In this document: positions 1-7,796 of the stretch, one piece after another
How positions within the stretch are numbered: position 1 is the first letter of the stretch
How the letters are laid out: each line of letters begins with the position of its first letter
Origin: Chloroflexota bacterium
GTDB lineage: Bacteria; Chloroflexota; Limnocylindria; Limnocylindrales; CSP1-4
Length of the DNA stretch: 64,000 bases
Assembly: GCA_045804645.1 (NCBI GenBank)
Contig: JBJMMR010000041.1
Coordinates: 9,474 to 73,473 of the forward strand
Reading direction: 5' to 3'
Program-made: the position numbers and the translations under genes
The notes under the pieces: model-generated
Seen by the model: the letters and a program-made list of their open reading frames with translations, nothing else
What the model was told of the DNA's origin: nothing
Databases searched by the model: none

Positions 1-62
1 ATTAAGAAAGCGAAACCGATCTCGCGCGGGGCCCAGATCGGCATCGCGTGTACGATCGGGCG

Positions 63-1346
63 ATGGATCGAGCCCCGATGCGACCGGTCGTGATCGCCGC
101 GATCGTCGCCCTTCTCGTCGCTGCGTGCGGCTCGCCCACGCCGTCGGTGAGCCCTTCCGCTTCGGCTTCGCTGTCGCCGTCGTCGAGCGCCCCCGCCGTA
201 TCTCCGAGCGCGTCCGGTTCCGGTGGCGATGCAGCCGTGTACGCCGAGATCAACGACCAGGTGCGGGCGATCCGAGGCCTCCAGGAGAAGAAGCCGATCG
301 AGCCGACCATCGTCTCGCCCGACGAGATGACGCAGGTCCTCAAGGATTCCTTCAGCGAGGACTACCCGCCCGAGCAGGTGGCCGCCGACGAGCAGCTCTA
401 CCACGGCCTCGGGTTGTTGCCGAAGGACGACAAGCTGGCTGACGTCTATATCGACCTCCTGTCCAGCCAGGTCGCCGGCCTGTACGACCCGGTCAAGGAG
501 AAGCTGTACGTCGTATCCAAGGCCGGCGGCGTCGGCGCCGTCGAGAAGGTCTACTACTCGCACGAGTACGACCACGTCCTGCAGGACCAGAACTTCGACC
601 TTGAGAAGATGCAGGACGGGCTCGATGACAAGACCGACGAGGCCCTTGCGCGGCAGTCGCTCGTCGAGGGCGACGCCTACCTGACGATGTCGTACTGGCT
701 GCAGCAGAACCTGACTCCCGCAGAGATCGGCGAGGTGATCCAGGCCTCGCAGGACCCCGACGCGCAGCAGGCGCTCAACCGGATCCCGCCGATCGTGCAG
801 GCACAGATCATGTTCTCCGCCATCCAGGGCACCCAGTTCGTCACGGGCATCCAGCTGGGGGGCGGATGGGAAGCGGTCGATAGCGGATTCGGCAAGCCAC
901 CGACGTCGACGGAGCAGATCCTCCATCCGGAGAAGTACACGGCCCACGAGACGCCGATCGCGGTCGACGTCCCCGCCGACCTCGCGAAGAGGATGGGATC
1001 AGGCTGGTCGACCGTGATGGAAGACACGATGGGTGAGCACCAGACAGCGATCTGGCTGGGCTCCGGCGCGGTCGCGGCGGCGACGGACGCGTCAGCCGGC
1101 TGGGGCGGCGACCGGATCACTTATCTGAGCGGCGCGAGGGACAGCTGGGCGATCGGATGGCACACCGTCTGGGACAGCAAGGAGGACGCCGCCGAATTCG
1201 ACGTGACGGCCAAGACCGCCGTAGAGAAGGCCGGTGGTCCCGGTCAGGTACTCCCGGGCGAGGGAGGGACGACCCGGTGGGTCGTGATCGGCAGCGACGA
1301 CGCCGCACTGCAGAAGGTCGCCAACGGGCTCGGGCTGGCGGGCTAG
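63..1346 (+). CDS. Lipoprotein with zinc-metallopeptidase-like (gluzincin) motif
   Basis: Lipobox LVAAC, Ser/Pro linker, HEYDH plus downstream EGDA. TACGAT -10 element 6 nt before ATG 63. Confidence 0.7.
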   Translation: MDRAPMRPVVIAAIVALLVAACGSPTPSVSPSASASLSPSSSAPAVSPSASGSGGDAAVYAEINDQVRAIRGLQEKKPIEPTIVSPDEMTQVLKDSFSEDYPPEQVAADEQLYHGLGLLPKDDKLADVYIDLLSSQVAGLYDPVKEKLYVVSKAGGVGAVEKVYYSHEYDHVLQDQNFDLEKMQDGLDDKTDEALARQSLVEGDAYLTMSYWLQQNLTPAEIGEVIQASQDPDAQQALNRIPPIVQAQIMFSAIQGTQFVTGIQLGGGWEAVDSGFGKPPTSTEQILHPEKYTAHETPIAVDVPADLAKRMGSGWSTVMEDTMGEHQTAIWLGSGAVAAATDASAGWGGDRITYLSGARDSWAIGWHTVWDSKEDAAEFDVTAKTAVEKAGGPGQVLPGEGGTTRWVVIGSDDAALQKVANGLGLAG

Positions 1347-1380: not shown

Positions 1381-3063
1381 CTACATCGACTCCGGCGCCG
1401 AGATGCCCAGGAGCCCGAGCGTGCTCGCCAGCGTGACCTGGGTCGCACGGGCGAGCGCGAGGCGCGAAGCCGACCGCCCAGGATCGTCGGGATCGACGAC
1501 TCGAGCATCGCGATAGAACGCATGGAAGGCGGTCGCGAGCTGGGTCGCGTAGGCGGTGATGCCGTGCGTCTCCTCCGCTGTGACCGCGTCCTCGACGACT
1601 TCGGGCAGCCGGACGACCTCCCGTGCGAGGGCCGCCTCCGGGCCGTCGGCGAGCGTGCCCGCGACCGTCGACGCGGGCACCAAGCCGACTTCGGTCGCCT
1701 TGCGCAGGATCGAGGCGACCCGCGCATGTGCGTACTGGACGTAATAGACGGGGTTCTCGTTCGACTGCTTCTTGGCAAGCTCGATGTCGAAGTCGATCGA
1801 CGAGGTCGCCGCACGGGAGGCGAAGAACCACCGTGCTGCATCGACACCGACCTCGGCCAGCAGCTCGTCGAGCGTGACGAACTCCCCGGCCCGCTTGGAC
1901 ATCGAGATCTCGACCCCGTCGCGGACGAAGCGCACCCACGAGTACAGCAGCATCTGGACGGCGTCGACGTCGTAGCCCATCGCCTTGGCGGCGTTCCGGA
2001 CGCGCGCGACGGTGCCGTGGTGGTCGGCGCCCCAGATGTAGAGCAGGTGGTCGAAGCCGCGGCTGAACTTCTCGGTGACGTACCCGATGTCGGCGGCGAA
2101 GTACGTCGGCTGGCCGTTCGAGCGGTAGATCACGCGGTCCTTGTCGTCGCCGAAATCCGTGCTGCGGAACCAGACGGCGCCGTCCTGCTCGTAGACGTAT
2201 CCGCGCTCACGCAGGCGTTCGACCGCACGCTCGACCCAGCCCTCCTCGTGGAGCGATCGCTCGGTCGTCCAGACGTCGAAATGGACGCCAAGCCGCTCGA
2301 GGCTCGCCTCGATACCGCTCCGGACCTGTGCGGCCGCCCAGCGACCAAGGACGTTGGCCGTGTCGGTCTCCCGCTTCGTCGCCTCGGCCCAGACGTCTGG
2401 AGGGACCGCGGCCGCGAGATCGTCGACATAGTCCCCTCGATACCCCTCCTCCGAGACGGGTTCGCCACGCCGCAAGGCAGCGATCGACGCCCCGAGCTGG
2501 TCGATCTGGCCGCCGGAGTCGTTGAAGTAATACTCGCGAGTCACCTGTTGCCCGCCCGCCTCGAGGACGCGGCTGAGCAGGTCCCCGATGAACGCGCCAC
2601 GGGCGTTGCCGATCGTGAGCGGACCGGTCGGGTTCGCTGACACGAACTCGACGTTCACGCGCCGGGGCGAGATCGGGTCGACGCGACCCCACGCCTCCGG
2701 CTGGGCGAGGATCCCGTCGACGATGGCCTCGAGCGCGGTGGCTTTCAGCCGCACGTTCAGGAAGCCGGGCGGCGCGACTTCGGCGGCCTCGACCGGCGAG
2801 GCGTTCTCGCGCGAGCTGGCGTCGCGGACGAGCTTCGCGGCGAGCAGTGTCGCCAGCTCGAGCGGCGAACGCCGGTAGGGGCGCGCGAGCTTCATCGCGA
2901 GGTTCGTCGAGAAGTCCCCGTGACCAGGGTCGGCGGGTCGCTCCACTTCGATCGCCGGCCGCGCGTCGGGGTCAAGGGTCGCGAGGGAGCCCTCATCGAT
3001 CGCGCGCGCCCAGGCGCGTTCGATGGCAAGGCGTACGTGCGTGCGCAAGGGGGCGGGGGTCAC
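1381..3063 (-). CDS. argS: Arginine--tRNA ligase
   Basis: HGDFSTN, VEFVSANPTGPL, YIWGADHHG, SMSKR and YYVQYAHAR motifs. Confidence 0.96.
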   Translation of the reverse strand: MTPAPLRTHVRLAIERAWARAIDEGSLATLDPDARPAIEVERPADPGHGDFSTNLAMKLARPYRRSPLELATLLAAKLVRDASSRENASPVEAAEVAPPGFLNVRLKATALEAIVDGILAQPEAWGRVDPISPRRVNVEFVSANPTGPLTIGNARGAFIGDLLSRVLEAGGQQVTREYYFNDSGGQIDQLGASIAALRRGEPVSEEGYRGDYVDDLAAAVPPDVWAEATKRETDTANVLGRWAAAQVRSGIEASLERLGVHFDVWTTERSLHEEGWVERAVERLRERGYVYEQDGAVWFRSTDFGDDKDRVIYRSNGQPTYFAADIGYVTEKFSRGFDHLLYIWGADHHGTVARVRNAAKAMGYDVDAVQMLLYSWVRFVRDGVEISMSKRAGEFVTLDELLAEVGVDAARWFFASRAATSSIDFDIELAKKQSNENPVYYVQYAHARVASILRKATEVGLVPASTVAGTLADGPEAALAREVVRLPEVVEDAVTAEETHGITAYATQLATAFHAFYRDARVVDPDDPGRSASRLALARATQVTLASTLGLLGISAPESM

Positions 3064-3356
3064 CGCGGCATCGTACCGGCCGACGCCCCGTGACGTCGGT
3101 ACCGGTGCCGGTCCTGGGTCGTCGGTCCGGGGGTCCTGGGGGACCCTTCGTTGCTGGCCGTCAACGAAATCCCGGGCGCCTGGTCGGTCGAGGTGGGAAT
3201 GGTGTAGTCACCGGTCGCCAGAGGTACTAGACCGGCCAGTACCCCCGTGTGAGTATCGGGTCCTCGTTCGGTGCACGGACAACCCCGCCAGGGGAGAGCG
3301 GCCGTACGGGGGGACCACTCAACCAGAGGCTTCAGCCTCAGCTCGGGGACCGTCAC

Positions 3357-4148
3357 ATGTCGAGTACTCGCTCCGGCGCAAGGTCGCGCCTGGCCCGCCG
3401 CCTCTCATGGCTCGGGGTCATGTCCATGGTCGCCACGGCACTGCTTGCGCCGTCGACCTCATCCGCGCTCGCGGCTGCGCCTGGCAACAACGCCACGGTG
3501 AAGATCGAGGATTCGGTGAACCCGAAGCCCGAGCCGGCGAACGATCCGCACGTCTGCCAGTTCGACATCAAGTTCTTCTTCGCGGATCCAGGGCAGACCG
3601 GCGACTGGCACATCCAGTCGTGGCCTCCGACCGGCGACAAGACGACCGTCCTCGAGGGGACGTACGACACGAACGGCCAGGGCTTCGATCGCCAGCCGAC
3701 GAGCGGCTACTACTCGCTGGCGGACGGCCACTACAAGCTCTTCTGGAAGGGCGACGAGGAAAAGCTCTGGAAGCACAAGGTCTTCTGGGTCGAGTGCCAG
3801 CAGACCGAGCCGACCGAAACGCCGAAGCCCACGGAGACCGCGAAGCCGACCGAGACGCCCAAGCCGACCGAAACGGCGAAGCCGACCGAGACGCCCAAGC
3901 CGACCTACACGCCTGCGCCCACGGAGACCGACAGGGTCGATCCCACGCCGAAGCCCACGGGTGATGTCGGTCCGTCGACCGGCAAGACCAACCCGCCACA
4001 CGCGACGCTGCCGGCGACGGACACGCTTGATGCGGTGTCGACGACTCCGGCAAGCGACAGCTGGCGGATCATCCTCCTGGCGATGGCCGGTCTGCTGACC
4101 GCCGCACTGATGCTGACGCCGGCCCGCGCCGCCCGGAAGCAGGACTAG
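3357..4148 (+). CDS. Secreted/surface protein with PTET(P/A)K repeats and conserved C-terminal LPxTDT-TM tail
   Basis: Signal peptide ending SSALA, small beta-rich domain with 2 Cys, Pro/Thr linker, TLPATDT, WRIILLAMAGLL transmembrane segment and basic tail. GGGGAC RBS-like site before ATG 3357. Confidence 0.8.
   Translation: MSSTRSGARSRLARRLSWLGVMSMVATALLAPSTSSALAAAPGNNATVKIEDSVNPKPEPANDPHVCQFDIKFFFADPGQTGDWHIQSWPPTGDKTTVLEGTYDTNGQGFDRQPTSGYYSLADGHYKLFWKGDEEKLWKHKVFWVECQQTEPTETPKPTETAKPTETPKPTETAKPTETPKPTYTPAPTETDRVDPTPKPTGDVGPSTGKTNPPHATLPATDTLDAVSTTPASDSWRIILLAMAGLLTAALMLTPARAARKQD
3810..3906 (+). repeat. 18-bp coding tandem repeat (PTETPK/PTETAK, about 5 units)
   Basis: Direct repeats of ccgaccga(a/g)acg(c/g)cgaag-like units. 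Confidence 0.85.
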
Positions 4149-4373
4149 CGTTCGCTGACCCGAGCGCCCGATAGCCTCGGTATCCGAGCAGCCGATGACC
4201 GCCGCCCTCACCGGCGGCGGTCATCGTCCACCTGACTCCCCAAGGCTCGAGGCGATCGTCCGGATCGCCACCCTGCGACCGCGCAGGAACACCAGCGCTC
4301 GCTGACCCGGAGTGTCCGAGCCGCTCTGGTCCGAGCACACGACGACCGTCGCCCTTGTCGGCGACGGTCGTCG
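4147..4373. repeat. Two degenerate copies of an ~80-nt element, each ending in a GC-rich hairpin
   Basis: 4147-4226 aligns with 4294-4373. Stems are 4194-4225 (13 bp) and 4340-4373 (14 bp). Confidence 0.75.
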
Positions 4374-4566
4374 CCTTGTGTCTCGCCACGGAAGCGGTGC
4401 GCGACGGCACCAGAAGTGTCAAAGGTTTGACGCTGGCGTTGACCGGAAAGTACTAGACGCCAACGCAGGACCATGGGACTATGCCGGGCCTCGGCCCCAC
4501 GAGTGGGGGCTCCAGGCCGAGCCGTCATGCCTGAGGCCTCGCCTCACCTCTTGGGGACCGTATCGA

Positions 4567-5289
4567 ATGACTGCCCAAACGCGTTCTCGAGCGAGCCGAC
4601 GCCTTGGCTGGCTCGTTGTGGTCGGTATGACCGTCGCCGCCTTGGCCGCTCCGAGTGCAACTTCCCTTGCTGCCGACGCGAAGATCGAAATCACGATCTG
4701 CCACGCCACCGGATCGCAAGGCAATCCCTACATCGTCAATTCACCAGCCATCAACTCGAGCGGTGCGTTCGCCGGAGAACTCGCGGGCGGACACAACGGG
4801 CATACGGGTCCCCTGTGGTTCCCAGGCATCCAGGTCTCGTGGGGCGACATCATCCCGCCCTATGTCTACCCGCCCGCCAACTTCACGTACGCCGGTCTCA
4901 ACTGGACCGCCGAGGGTCAGGCCATCTACGACAACGACTGCAACATCCCTGAGGCGACCGCCACCCCGACCGAGGCGCCCACCGCCACCCCGACCCAGGC
5001 GCCTACAGCTACGCCGACCGACGCTCCGACCGGAACGCCGGCTCCGACCGGCAGCGTCGAGCCGACGCAAACCGTGAATCCCACGGACCCACCCGCCGGG
5101 AGCGTGGACGCGGCGACGGCGACGCCGGCTCGGACCCTGCCATCGACCAGCACGATCGACGGGTCCGGCAATGGGCCGATGAACGATGGGTGGCGCGTCG
5201 TCCTGCTCGCGCTGGCGGGAGTCCTCGCGACTGCGCTGCTGCTGACGCCGGCCACGGCCGTGGTCCGAAAGGACGACCGGCGCCGCTGA
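4567..5289 (+). CDS. Secreted/surface protein (ITICHATGS..NPY domain) with C-terminal LPSTST-TM tail
   Basis: Signal peptide, CHATGS-NPY domain, PTATPT repeats, TLPSTST, WRVVLLALAGVL transmembrane segment, RKDDRRR tail. Confidence 0.8.
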   Translation: MTAQTRSRASRRLGWLVVVGMTVAALAAPSATSLAADAKIEITICHATGSQGNPYIVNSPAINSSGAFAGELAGGHNGHTGPLWFPGIQVSWGDIIPPYVYPPANFTYAGLNWTAEGQAIYDNDCNIPEATATPTEAPTATPTQAPTATPTDAPTGTPAPTGSVEPTQTVNPTDPPAGSVDAATATPARTLPSTSTIDGSGNGPMNDGWRVVLLALAGVLATALLLTPATAVVRKDDRRR

Positions 5290-5321
5290 CGGTCAGCCCG
5301 ACACAGGGGTCCCCGAGACCC

Positions 5322-5358
5322 GGGCGGAGCGCCGCGCTGTCCGTGTGGTGCTCCGCCC
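5322..5358. terminator. Hairpin between convergent genes (probable terminator)
   Basis: gggcggagcgcc...ggtgctccgccc inverted repeat; no U-tract. Confidence 0.5.
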
Positions 5359-5407
5359 ACGTCTCCGCACGGCGGTGACGCGATCGGCTCGAGCTCACGC
5401 CGGGGTG

Positions 5408-6172
5408 TCAGATCGTGAAGGTCGACCCCGGGTAGACCAGCTCGACGGGACCGGTGTAGCGAGCTCGGACGGACGCGACCGTCGCGTCGGGGTCGAAGCC
5501 CATCTGGAGATGCGTCAGCAAGACGCGTCCGACGCGCGCGGTCGTTGCGAGATCGCCGACGGCGGGACCGTCGAGATGCAAGGCGTCCGCGGCGACGGGG
5601 CCGGGCCCGAACGATACTTCCGAGAGAAGCCAGTCTCCGGGCACGATCAGCGGCTGTAGGTCGCTCGCTCGACCGCAATCCCCGGAGTAGACGAGGCCTG
5701 GGCCGTTCCCGAGCGAGATTCGAAAAGCGTGGCTGTCCCGAGTGTGCGTGACCCGGATCGCGCGGATCGCGAGAGGCCCGACGGTCACGTCGTCCGGGAT
5801 GGGTTCGACATCGAGCGTCGCGGCGGTGAACCCGGGTTCGTCATGGAGCGCGTCGATCCGGCCCGCCAGGCCCGTCGGCGCGATGACGCGGACGTGGCGC
5901 TCCGGGTGGAACTGCCAGCGCAGGTAATGGCGCATCGCGACGAGATCGATGAAGTGGTCGGGATGCAAGTGGCTGACGAAGACTGCATCGACGGTGCTCG
6001 GCTCGAGCGTCGCGGCTAGCCGCGGGAACGACCCCTGGCCGAGGTCCAGGACGATCGCCGTCGAGTCGGCGCGGACCAGGTAGGAAGCGCCGGCAGCTCC
6101 GAGCTTATCGGTGTACGCCGGTCCCGCCCCGAGCACGTCGAGACTCATCGGCACGGACGTGTCGGCACCCAC
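5408..6172 (-). CDS. MBL-fold metallohydrolase (RNase Z/BN-like)
   Basis: SHLHPDH motif, YSGD and LLTH. Confidence 0.88.
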   Translation of the reverse strand: MGADTSVPMSLDVLGAGPAYTDKLGAAGASYLVRADSTAIVLDLGQGSFPRLAATLEPSTVDAVFVSHLHPDHFIDLVAMRHYLRWQFHPERHVRVIAPTGLAGRIDALHDEPGFTAATLDVEPIPDDVTVGPLAIRAIRVTHTRDSHAFRISLGNGPGLVYSGDCGRASDLQPLIVPGDWLLSEVSFGPGPVAADALHLDGPAVGDLATTARVGRVLLTHLQMGFDPDATVASVRARYTGPVELVYPGSTFTI

Positions 6173-6204
6173 GATGTGAGCGTAGCCCACCGCCGGTGAG
6201 CGTT

Positions 6205-7200
6205 TCAGTCCTGTCCGTCGTCCTGCGGTCCACCCGGCGCCTCGGCGTTCGGCTTCGGCGTCTTCGTCGGCTTGCGCGTGGCGTCCGGGCGATCGGTGGC
6301 TGTCGGCTTTCCGGCTCCCTCGGGGTGTTCCGGCGGGGCCTTGGTCGGCTTCGGCGTGGCTTCCGGGCCGTTCGTGCTCGATCCCGTTCCGACGCCGCCA
6401 TGGCCGCCGTTCGAGCCGCTCCCGTTGTCGCCCTGGTCGCCGCCAGCGGTCCCGTCGCCGCCAGGGGTCCCGTGGCTCCCGGAGCCCCCAATCGGCGTCG
6501 GGCGTTCGACCGAGCCGACCGAGTCGATCGCGCCCGTGCTTTTCGCGATCGCCCGCGCGACCGCCGCATCGATCGCATCCGCAGCGCGCGATGGCACGCG
6601 ACGCGCCAGTGCTTCGAGGACCTCGACATTGCGCCCGAGACCCGTCTCGAGAGCGGCTGCCGCAACAGCGTCCCCCGCGTGGACGACGGCGATCGATGCC
6701 TCGGTCATGATCCGTTCGTATGCCGCGAGTGCGGCCGCTGCCGCGCCTTCGTCGCCATCTCGGGCGGCCGCGTCAGCCTCGCGCAGACGGTCGCCGAGGC
6801 GGCTGAGCTCGGCCACTGCCCGAGCGGACGGCTCGGACGGTAGGGAGACGTTCTCGATCCAGAGCCGTCCCTCGTAGAGGGCCCCACCCGGACTCGAGGA
6901 CGCTGCCGCGCCACCGACCATCGCCCCGACGAGGATCGCGGCCGCGACGAGGGTGAACGCCGCCCGTCGGCGACCCCGAAGCCCTCGCTCGATCGCGCTG
7001 CGTGACGCCGTCGCTGGCACGATGCTCAACGCGGCGTCGGCTCGCGTGAGATCCGCGCGGCGATGGGCATGCGCGAGGACACGCGCCCGCATCCGCGACG
7101 TAGCGGTGAGGTCGGGCGTCAGACGGTCATCGGCGTACGCCTCCAGGCGCCGCCTAAGACGGATGTCCCCGGCCGCCAAGTCGATCATGTCGTCGTTCAT
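6205..7200 (-). CDS. Putative anti-sigma factor (TM plus DUF5667-like domain, low-complexity tail)
   Basis: Overlaps the ECF sigma stop codon; single TM followed by SSPGGALY..RLWIE; Gly/Pro/Thr-rich tail. Confidence 0.6.
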   Translation of the reverse strand: MNDDMIDLAAGDIRLRRRLEAYADDRLTPDLTATSRMRARVLAHAHRRADLTRADAALSIVPATASRSAIERGLRGRRRAAFTLVAAAILVGAMVGGAAASSSPGGALYEGRLWIENVSLPSEPSARAVAELSRLGDRLREADAAARDGDEGAAAAALAAYERIMTEASIAVVHAGDAVAAAALETGLGRNVEVLEALARRVPSRAADAIDAAVARAIAKSTGAIDSVGSVERPTPIGGSGSHGTPGGDGTAGGDQGDNGSGSNGGHGGVGTGSSTNGPEATPKPTKAPPEHPEGAGKPTATDRPDATRKPTKTPKPNAEAPGGPQDDGQD

Positions 7201-7796
7201 CGACCGACCCGCCCATCGCTCGCGGCATCCTGGCCGCGATCGGTGTCCGGCTCATCGATCCGAAGCTGACGGCGGAGTGCCGCGATCGCCCGGAACTGGA
7301 GCCCGCGGATCGTCCCTTCCTGCTTGCCCATCACCTGAGCGGCTTCGCGTGCCGAGAGGCCGGCGAAGAACCGCAGCGCGATGGCGTCTCGTTGTTCGTC
7401 CGTCAGCGCCGCGAGCGCCGCAGCCACGTCGTCGAGTTCCTGGCGCGCGACCGTGACCTCATCGGGACCCGCGTCGACGCCGGGCTGCTGACTCGCGGAC
7501 TCGAGGTCCACGTGGTCGTGACGCGTCCGGACGTGATCGATGACCGTGTTCCTGGCCAGCCGGAAGAGCCAGCCCCCGAACGGGATGCCTCGCGCTTCGT
7601 ATCGCGGCAGGGCCTCCAGGGCCTTGACGAAGACGAGCTGCGTCAGGTCCTCCGCGTCCGACGGGCGGTGGACGCGGCTGGCGATGTAGCGGTAGACCGG
7701 CAGGTGGTAGTGATCGAACAGAAGTCCGAACGCCCACGCGTCCCCCGAGCGTGCTTCCTGTACCAGCCGCTCGACCGCGGTGTCGTCGAGGGTCAC
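7197..7796 (-). CDS. ECF RNA polymerase sigma factor
   Basis: DAEDLTQLVF, WLFRLARN and a region-4 HTH. Confidence 0.93.
   Translation of the reverse strand: MTLDDTAVERLVQEARSGDAWAFGLLFDHYHLPVYRYIASRVHRPSDAEDLTQLVFVKALEALPRYEARGIPFGGWLFRLARNTVIDHVRTRHDHVDLESASQQPGVDAGPDEVTVARQELDDVAAALAALTDEQRDAIALRFFAGLSAREAAQVMGKQEGTIRGLQFRAIAALRRQLRIDEPDTDRGQDAASDGRVGR

Follow-up and report, generated by a model that had tools for sequence, protein, structure and literature searches.

The 64-kb stretch of DNA analysed here (the window; G000:C41:9474-73473) comes from an uncultured soil Chloroflexota bacterium of the order Limnocylindrales, with an assembly of 3.05 Mb in 77 contigs that is 87% complete, and contains two tandem plus-strand open reading frames (ORFs), A and B, which encode predicted exported proteins with the same kind of C-terminal tail. 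An earlier interpretation made from the letters alone (the sequence-only reading) had seen in this tail an undescribed protein-sorting system; both ORFs lie where it had placed them, with sequences exactly as quoted. The locus is organized as follows.

3357-4148, plus strand: gene A (P0001), 263 amino acids (aa), with a leader, an Ig-like beta-sandwich passenger, a Pro/Thr stalk and the putative sorting tail; orthologues of equal length exist (P0076 and others).
3357-3479, plus strand: leader of A, with the basic n-region RSRLARRLSW, a hydrophobic core and an SALA-AA cleavage-like site, read from the sequence.
3495-3791, plus strand: passenger A, residues 47-145, a seven-strand beta sandwich in the AlphaFold2 (AF2) model.
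3801-3995, plus strand: Pro/Thr stalk of A, TEPTETPKPTETAKPTE..., an 18-nt periodic repeat at the DNA level.
3996-4145, plus strand: tail of A, PHATLPATDTLDAVSTTPASDSWR-IILLAMAGLLTAALMLTPA-RAARKQD, with LPATD at 4008-4022; 85.8 bits on the tail profile.
4340-4373, plus strand: terminator-like hairpin between A and B with a 14-bp stem, from a consensus scan only.
4567-5289, plus strand: gene B (P0002), 240 aa, with a leader, a small Cys/His-containing passenger (ICHATGS..NPY), a Pro/Thr stalk and the putative sorting tail.
4567-4674, plus strand: leader of B, RSRASRRLGWLVVVGM..SLAA.
4675-4947, plus strand: passenger B, residues 37-127, with no sequence kinship to passenger A.
4948-5124, plus strand: Pro/Thr stalk of B, read from the sequence.
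5125-5286, plus strand: tail of B, PARTLPSTSTIDGSGNGPMNDGWR-VVLLALAGVLATALLLTPA-TAVVRKDDRRR, with LPSTS at 5137-5151; 105.8 bits on the tail profile.

The two proteins match at their ends and are unrelated in between, as had been claimed. At the N-terminus, A reads RSRLARRLSWLGVMSM..ALLAPS..SALA and B reads RSRASRRLGWLVVVGM..ALAAPS..SLA, with the basic leader starts RSRLARRLSWLGV.. and RSRASRRLGWLVV.., respectively; at the C-terminus, A reads TLPATDTLD..SDSWRIILLAMAGLLTAALMLTPARAARKQD from position 4005 and B reads TLPSTSTID..NDGWRVVLLALAGVLATALLLTPATAVVRKDDRRR from position 5134. Both tails are about 50 aa long, follow a Pro/Thr-rich stalk and consist of a TLPxT[DS]T box, a spacer, D(S/G)WR, a hydrophobic helix ending in LTPA (modelled by AF2 over residues 235-253 in A) and a basic end. 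BLASTP aligns A with B at E 2e-30, a signal that comes from the two ends, and gives E 2.4 for the passengers alone. Since the tail-coding DNA is only 70% identical over 77 nt, the pair does not stem from a recent duplication. Both N-termini show the layout of a signal peptide (a basic n-region, then a hydrophobic core and a site resembling A-x-A, read from sequence and model), and in A the model makes residues 8-30 of the leader helical. Only A and B carry, within this genome, the leader motif R..RRL.WL with a hydrophobic core behind it, and the twin arginines of this motif leave open the possibility of export by twin-arginine translocation; orthologues of gene B share the start MTAQTRSR. Additionally, a further protein, P0013, combines a tail 89% identical to that of B over 83 aa and leader residues 1-18 identical to those of B with an unrelated middle, so that leader and tail appear to act as a cassette around swapped middles.

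The tail recurs far beyond these two genes. A hidden Markov model (HMM) built from both tails recovers A and B from the 28,864 six-frame ORFs of the genome (115 and 101 bits, respectively; next best, 11.6 bits), and a strict regular expression likewise retrieves these two only. A broader HMM together with a looser scan adds a protein on contig C62 (G000:C62:24009-24969, plus strand), which ends in TLPPTDT, 12 aa, a transmembrane (TM) helix and RRR, and one on contig C27 (G000:C27:22299-23220, minus strand), which ends in TVPPTDT..TM..RR. In both, the helix is unrelated to WR..LTPA, indicating that the box is conserved independently of that helix. Outside the genome, a search with the tail of B found 47 proteins with several different N-terminal domains, and a profile made from an alignment of 15 tails (A1), searched against 1.84 billion proteins, found 349 cluster representatives at E<=1e-3, 72 of them at E<=1e-10. 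Residue statistics were taken from 150 listed of the 349 representatives: a terminal TM helix is present in 144, W[RQK] in 136 and, upstream of W[RQK], an xPxT-x box in 128, with a median Thr-to-Trp distance of 13.5 residues. In these 128 boxes, the residue after the Thr (P1') is Asp in 110, Ser in 10, Asn in 3, Gly in 3 and Ala in 2, and the first residue of the box (P4) is Leu in 89 and Pro in 25. Of the motif TLPxT(D/S)T proposed from A and B, the Asp or Ser thus stands in the wider family and the Leu is not kept. The family consensus can be written G-(A/E)-T-G-T-P..T-(L/P)-P-x-T-D-T, spacer, WR, helix, LTP, basic end; W, R, A, L, T, P and A do not vary among the 15 aligned tails.

The passengers carried by the tail are diverse. 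Passenger A is modelled with a predicted local distance difference test (pLDDT) score above 90 over most of the domain, and Foldseek returns generic Ig-like matches only (best E 9e-5). Passenger B has no Pfam family in a scan of the whole protein, its AF2 model (mean pLDDT 57.6) is too poor for structure search, and its best ESM Atlas score, 0.80 to a hypothetical protein of Actinomycetota, lies below the level of a usable lead. A domain scan of 115 tail proteins, in which each listed family is present in a minority only, returned SpaA (12 proteins), DUF7507, DUF5979, DUF11 and DUF7601 (3 each) and SdrD_B (2), as well as InlJ_IG and CarboxypepD_reg, with no family match in P0001 itself; at the syntenic locus of a related genome (G026), a 1659-aa protein combines eight DUF11 stretches with DUF7507 and CARDB. 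By their families, these passengers would be domains of the surface-adhesin type. Thus, the expectation that the tail is a recurrent C-terminal module on varied passengers was borne out by the 349 representatives and by passenger domains such as SpaA and DUF11, and the possibility that it belongs to two paralogues only can be set aside, given these representatives and its presence in 38 of 60 genomes of its own family (see below).

The homologues of passenger A connect this module to canonical sorting signals. Within the C-terminal 62 residues of 120 listed homologues, out of 201 found, the last [LP]PxT-x box reads LPxTG in 23, LPxTD in 13, LPxTA in 9 and LPxTS in 7, with no box in 55, many of which are fragments. 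Three of the 23 LPxTG-ending homologues carry an organism name (Nocardiopsaceae, Streptosporangiales and Streptosporangiaceae), and a 'Candidatus Limnocylindria' homologue ends in LPDTA-TM-RSRR. One and the same domain therefore precedes a true LPXTG signal elsewhere, in three named cases in Actinobacteria, and the variant tail here.

None of the catalogued profiles covers the tail, as the sequence-only reading had expected. NCBIfam and Pfam scans of whole A and B gave low-complexity matches only, and TIGR01167 had no match at E<=10 in the whole proteins or the 15 tails. Synerg-CTERM matched one of the 15 tails at E 0.33 and PGF-CTERM one or two at E 1.5-6.1, all non-significant. A Smim3 match to 13 of the 15 tails was rejected as an effect of helix composition (whole P0002 reaches 20 of the 25 bits required, and whole P0001 gives no match). 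Since the tail lacks both the Gly at P1' and a profile match, we file it as a variant of the sortase signal outside the catalogued LPXTG family; we regard it as uncatalogued and not as a new system. Searches of open-access text found no publication on the tail and no paper linking Limnocylindria and sortase.

The distribution of the tail is that of a single lineage. A scan of the GTDB species genomes with a narrower tail alignment (A2) found 25 tail loci, 24 of them in metagenome-assembled genomes (MAGs) of uncultured Chloroflexia, Candidatus Limnocylindrales or Chloroflexota and the remaining one on a 1.9-kb contig of an 'Acidimicrobiales' MAG. In a draw of 60 relatives, the tail is present in 30 of 36 genomes of the same genus, in one to seven copies, and in 0 of 24 of family f2; the copies of the same-genus genomes are often in tandem, on frames of up to 1905 aa. 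In a draw of 200 genomes of the class, it is present in 38 of 60 genomes of its own family, f1, and in none of f2 (0/7), f3 (0/66), f4 (0/66) or f5 (0/1), the tallies for f3 and f4, like those given for sortases below, including eight genomes flagged as unpublished, on which nothing else is based. In a draw of 300 genomes of the phylum, it occurs in 9 of 15 f1 genomes and in 0 of 285 from other families. The tail is thus confined to one Limnocylindrales family among the 300 sampled Chloroflexota genomes, and the claim that it is lineage-specific holds (f1 38/60 vs 0/140; 9/15 vs 0/285).

A sortase with a related distribution is encoded elsewhere in the genome. Two ORFs of the sortase fold (PF04203) are present, on contigs C37 and C42. 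The former (G000:C37:6569-7321, minus strand, outside the window) encodes a divergent 251-aa candidate Cys sortase, hereafter the type-1 sortase, which scores 38.6 bits on PF04203 against a cut-off of 26.6, has an LTLQTC segment that aligns with LTLVTC of a solved streptococcal SrtA, and keeps H170, C235 and R243 invariant in 46 orthologues, labelled plain 'sortase' by NCBI. In the class draw, the type-1 sortase is present in 30 of 60 f1 genomes and 0 of 140 elsewhere; in the phylum draw, strong orthologues are confined to f1, with weak ones (30-39% identity) in family f19 (6/6). Per genome, tail and sortase occur together in 27 of the 60 f1 genomes, the tail only in 11, the sortase only in 3 and neither in 19. 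By genus, the two are distributed as follows.

Genus g1: sortase 11/12, tail 12/12.
Genus g3: sortase 6/7, tail 7/7.
Genus g5: sortase 0/9, tail 0/9.
Genus g6: sortase 0/2, tail 0/2.
Genus g7: sortase 4/6, tail 5/6.
Genus g9: sortase 3/3, tail 3/3.
Genus g10: sortase 3/3, tail 2/3.
Genus g4, discordant: sortase 0/7, tail 5/7.
Genus g8, discordant: sortase 0/1, tail 1/1.
Genus g12, discordant: sortase 0/1, tail 1/1.
Genus g17, discordant: sortase 1/2, tail 0/2.

The identity of the P1' residue adds to this association. In 35 stretches, three of which gave no tail, Thr-Asp is found in 14 of 19 tails from type-1-positive genomes outside the genus of the window vs 2 of 13 from type-1-negative genomes, where Thr-Ser or Thr-Ala prevails; Asp at P1' thus seems to track the type-1 sortase. 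A complex model of the type-1 sortase with the tail of A reached a score of 0.62, with 0.00 for the best of three controls; of 80 solved complexes, 58 reach the mark on this scale, as do 2 of 110 mismatched pairs. Between runs, at least 98% of the contacts agree, the pLDDT of the partner is at least 71, and only tail residues 2-13 (HATLPATDTLDA) contact the enzyme, lying in the sortase groove, where Leu5 contacts R243 and Q233 and Thr8 contacts H170, C235 and R243. The modelled placement of LPAT in the active site would express likeness to solved complexes. Taken together, the type-1 sortase is the best candidate enzyme, and by its sequence features it could act on the tail. Of the dedicated transpeptidase that had been postulated to lie elsewhere in the genome, a candidate is thus at hand, and which sortase acts is an inference only. 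In the proposed co-occurrence check, the type-1 sortase shares the distribution of the tail (27/11/3/19), the PF04203 family as a whole is weakly linked, no exosortase was found and rhomboids are uninformative. PF04203 was rejected as a distribution marker, being a poor one that missed the type-1 sortase in three genomes (G062, G107 and G146) where direct protein search found it.

Sortase loci of relatives provide a further link between sortases and boxes of this kind. Among 53 loci inspected around PF04203 matches in genomes of the class, 12 carry an 'operon-type' sortase with the signature EQLT[LIV]QT[SC]TS..PRF.VIA.P. At nine of these 12 (L069, L071, L072, L074, L076, L078, L079, L081 and L088), a gene ending in LP[NR]T[SD][TA], 9-14 aa, a TM helix and an R-rich end directly adjoins the sortase gene, the gene order being Big_1 protein, sortase, DUF4012 protein (657-726 aa). 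Thus, in this class, a box with Ser or Asp after the Thr goes with sortase genes.

We therefore interpret the tail, with a probability of roughly 60%, as a variant, specific to this lineage, of the cell-wall sorting signal read by sortases, here on exported surface proteins, because homologues of passenger A carry canonical LPXTG, related boxes end genes adjacent to sortase genes, a Cys sortase is restricted to the same family and the complex model places the box in its groove. The variant signal would comprise (L/P)-P-x-T-(D/S), about 13-16 variable residues, W-R, a conserved TM helix ending in L-T-P and a basic end. After export, helix and basic end would retain A and B in the membrane, a membrane-anchored sortase would cut after the Thr and transfer the protein to an acceptor in the envelope, and the stalk would then keep the passenger at a distance from the cell. 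The only proteins of the genome with motif, TM helix and basic end are A, B and the C62 and C27 proteins, and the best genomic match to PF00746 (Gram_pos_anchor) reaches 15.9 bits against a cut-off of 20; the genome has no canonical LPXTG anchor, and these four (L/V)PxT(D/S) proteins are the sole candidate substrates. Hence, the undescribed sorting system originally proposed gives way to a variant of sortase/LPXTG sorting, to which the passenger A homologues, the sortase-adjacent boxes and the complex model point.

Several observations weigh against this interpretation. In the tail boxes, the Gly at P1' is replaced by Asp or Ser, no curated LPXTG or CTERM model of NCBIfam or Pfam matches the tail, and PF00746 itself matches one of 15 tails at E 0.44. 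In usual LPXTG signals, the box lies nearer the helix; the 13-16 residues found here are atypically many for sortase signals, and a conserved helix (WR..AG..LTP) is also atypical of sortase substrates and could mean a membrane-embedded reader. The window holds no sortase gene beside the tail genes, whose recurrent neighbours across 56 related stretches are housekeeping genes. The type-1 sortase matches no NCBIfam class A-F model, its sole match being TIGR01076, at 12.1 bits where 39.35 are required. It is absent from 11 of 38 tail-positive genomes, including all five tail-positive genomes of g4, in which another sortase would have to act, and three genomes possess it without the tail; moreover, the genomes are kin, so that the two-by-two table overstates the association and does not amount to a statistical test. 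With PF04203 as query, a sortase is found in 33 of 38 tail-positive vs 14 of 22 tail-negative genomes, a weak link, and f3 and f4 have PF04203 homologues in 58/66 and 62/66 genomes, respectively, yet no tail. In type-1-positive genomes of other genera, P4 is Leu in only 3 of 19 tails and mostly Pro. Finally, complexes of sortases with LPXT peptides have already been solved, so the complex score may reflect likeness only and not binding of this particular pair.

The most serious competitor, to which we give a minor share of the probability, is that the tail anchors the proteins in the membrane without being cleaved: A and B would be type I membrane proteins, box and stalk would serve another use, such as O-glycosylation or spacing, and the ends would be kept alike by a recombining cassette of promoter, leader and tail. 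The helix is indeed more conserved than the box (see the invariant residues of the 15 tails), and leader, tail and an upstream box are common to A and B while the middle is swapped; the long spacer between box and helix, the tail-positive genomes that lack the type-1 sortase (11/38) and the missing processing gene next to the tail would also fit. However, the P-x-T-(D/S) box persists where the helix differs, as in the C62 protein and in large DUF11 proteins, the same box ends genes directly beside sortase genes, and homologous passengers bear true LPXTG elsewhere. An uncleaved anchor would furthermore leave a sortase that looks catalytically intact without a candidate substrate in the genome.

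Still more doubtful is a reading in which another membrane-embedded enzyme, a rhomboid-type or new protease or transpeptidase, recognizes WR-helix-LTP in the manner of CTERM systems. A conserved helix with a small-residue A-G pair and an L-T-P end is closer to CTERM domains than to LPXTG, two rhomboid genes are present, and among NCBIfam models Synerg-CTERM (E 0.33) and PGF-CTERM (E 6.1) come nearest, without significance and each in one of 15 tails. Nevertheless, this 87%-complete genome has no PF09721 (exosortase) match at E<=0.01, nor was an archaeosortase found; rhomboids also occur in 14 of 14 control genomes, which makes their presence uninformative; a PEP, PGF or Gly-Gly box is missing from the tail; the tail loci have no conserved candidate gene beside them; and nothing on this side is a counterpart to the sortase-linked evidence. 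As for a plain local tandem duplication of one gene without wider meaning, the adjacency of A and B and their shared ends agree with it, but the unrelated passengers, the merely 70% identical tail DNA and the tail's presence on hundreds of protein clusters and in 38/60 family genomes refute it.

The tail resembles several known systems in part. Exosortases, archaeosortases and rhombosortases recognize their CTERM domains, and the tail shares with PEP-CTERM, PGF-CTERM and GlyGly-CTERM the tripartite layout, the conserved helix and lineage-restricted families on varied passengers; it differs from them in lacking a PEP, PGF or GG box, in a genome without a detected exosortase-family gene and with non-significant HMM matches. 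Dedicated signal peptides of the YSIRK/GS type occur on LPXTG proteins, and the pairing of a conserved leader motif (R..RRL.WL on A and B) with a C-terminal sorting signal is similar, although R..RRL.WL is unrelated to YSIRK/GS and its role putative. With the LPXTG/sortase systems of monoderms (PF00746/TIGR01167; PF04203), it has in common the signal peptide, the C-terminal x-P-x-T-x box, the helix and the basic end, as well as adhesin-type passengers (SpaA, DUF11, SdrD_B), sortase homologues in the genome and a passenger family found on true LPXTG elsewhere. Unlike LPXTG signals, the tail has Asp or Ser and not Gly at P1', often Pro at P4, a box about 13-16 residues from the helix and a conserved helix (WR..LTP); unlike in LPXTG systems, curated HMMs miss the tail, and the candidate sortase falls outside the class A-F models. 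Two of these deviations in the box have a precedent: SrtB of Clostridioides difficile cleaves PPKTG, with the motif (S/P)PXTG (PMC4155245), which parallels Pro at P4, and SrtA of Streptococcus pyogenes accepts LPXTS and LPXTA in vitro (PMC9520033), which parallels Ser at P1'. The natural substrates of both enzymes keep Gly at P1', unlike the tail, and no report of Asp as a natural P1' residue was found in open-access text.

In most sortase homologues of the class, Ser occupies the position of the catalytic Cys. The active-site residue is readable at 43 of the 53 loci (10 lack a pattern match) and is Ser at 38 and Cys at 5 (TLQTS vs TLQTC); in the operon-type forms, the flanks of Ser and Cys are otherwise near-identical, and a subtype adjacent to CorA lacks the usual Arg as well. 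The second homologue of the genome itself (G000:C42, L002:1390-2112, minus strand) is a Ser form, and further Ser loci are found among L058 and L067-L116. Judged by sequence, these homologues may represent serine transpeptidases or paralogues without activity; in open-access text, the phrases tried returned no description of natural Ser-type sortases. At one locus (L058:4182-5492, genome G143), two Ser-type sortase domains lie in tandem within a single 436-aa frame, at 4 kb from a gene with the tail; this sortase-like ORF was rejected as a conserved partner of the tail, being absent from the orthologous region of G026. An extension of the variant-signal interpretation, which we consider unlikely, combines a bipartite signal, in which a dedicated sortase of the lineage would read x-P-x-T-D and cut between Thr and Asp with WR-helix-LTP as a second, in-membrane element, with Ser-form homologues that would be active serine transpeptidases on LPxT(S/A) and hence a new catalytic type.

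Some features of the surroundings complete the picture. Recurrent neighbours in the 56 related stretches are genes for arginyl-tRNA synthetase (19) and a metallo-beta-lactamase (MBL)-fold hydrolase (14), together with a 357-432 aa lipoprotein, a PHP-type phosphoesterase and KBL; they were read as ordinary synteny of housekeeping genes, and a conserved processing gene beside the tail loci was rejected on these grounds. The lipoprotein of the window (48-1346, plus strand; 432 aa, predicted) carries an HEYDH (HExxH) motif besides an LVAAC lipobox-like site, matches no Pfam family, shares synteny with the tail locus across 13 related stretches and may, from its motif, be a secreted metalloprotease. 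Just downstream of the MBL-fold hydrolase gene (5408-6190) lies a minus-strand pair (6205-7796), consisting of a gene for a sigma-70-like factor (7197-7796) and, after it, a 331-aa gene (6205-7200) with a Pro/Thr/Gly-rich C-terminal half; this putative extracytoplasmic function sigma/anti-sigma pair is also found close to the tail locus of a few relatives. Upstream of each tail gene, by 114-127 nt from the starts of A and B, stands a box GACCGGNNAGTAC (3230-3242 and 4441-4453, plus strand), which has two exact copies in the window and, with at most one mismatch, four against 1.29 expected, a count reached by 4 of 100 shuffles; it may be a shared promoter or regulatory element. The sequence GGGGACCGT immediately precedes both start codons, and a consensus scan of 3000-5500 found no sigma-70-like promoter. 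The DNA of stalk A has an 18-nt period over six registers (3805-3948, plus strand), and slippage can alter stalk length. In the soil metatranscriptomes of four studies, contigs match B without any difference between 4498-4507 and 5113-5185, and three pieces of A are covered as well, so the sequence is present in RNA libraries, which falls short of proof of transcription. The contigs of all four studies start at 4498-4507, 60-69 nt upstream of the ATG of B, and two stop at 5183-5185, inside the helix-coding part of B, although contig ends are not true transcript ends.

For annotation, these observations imply that abundant soil-bacterial surface proteins of this kind are left without a sorting-signal call, no NCBIfam or Pfam profile matching their tail; with a tail profile, the proteins that a widespread uncultured Chloroflexota family displays would be recognized. 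The Ser-for-Cys homologues raise a separate, testable question on sortase chemistry. If the tail is indeed a variant sortase signal, the natural specificity of sortases would come to include Asp or Ser at P1' as well as Pro at P4, which would be of interest for sortase-based ligation, and the type-1 sortase and its tail would offer a concrete enzyme-substrate pair in a lineage without a cultured model.

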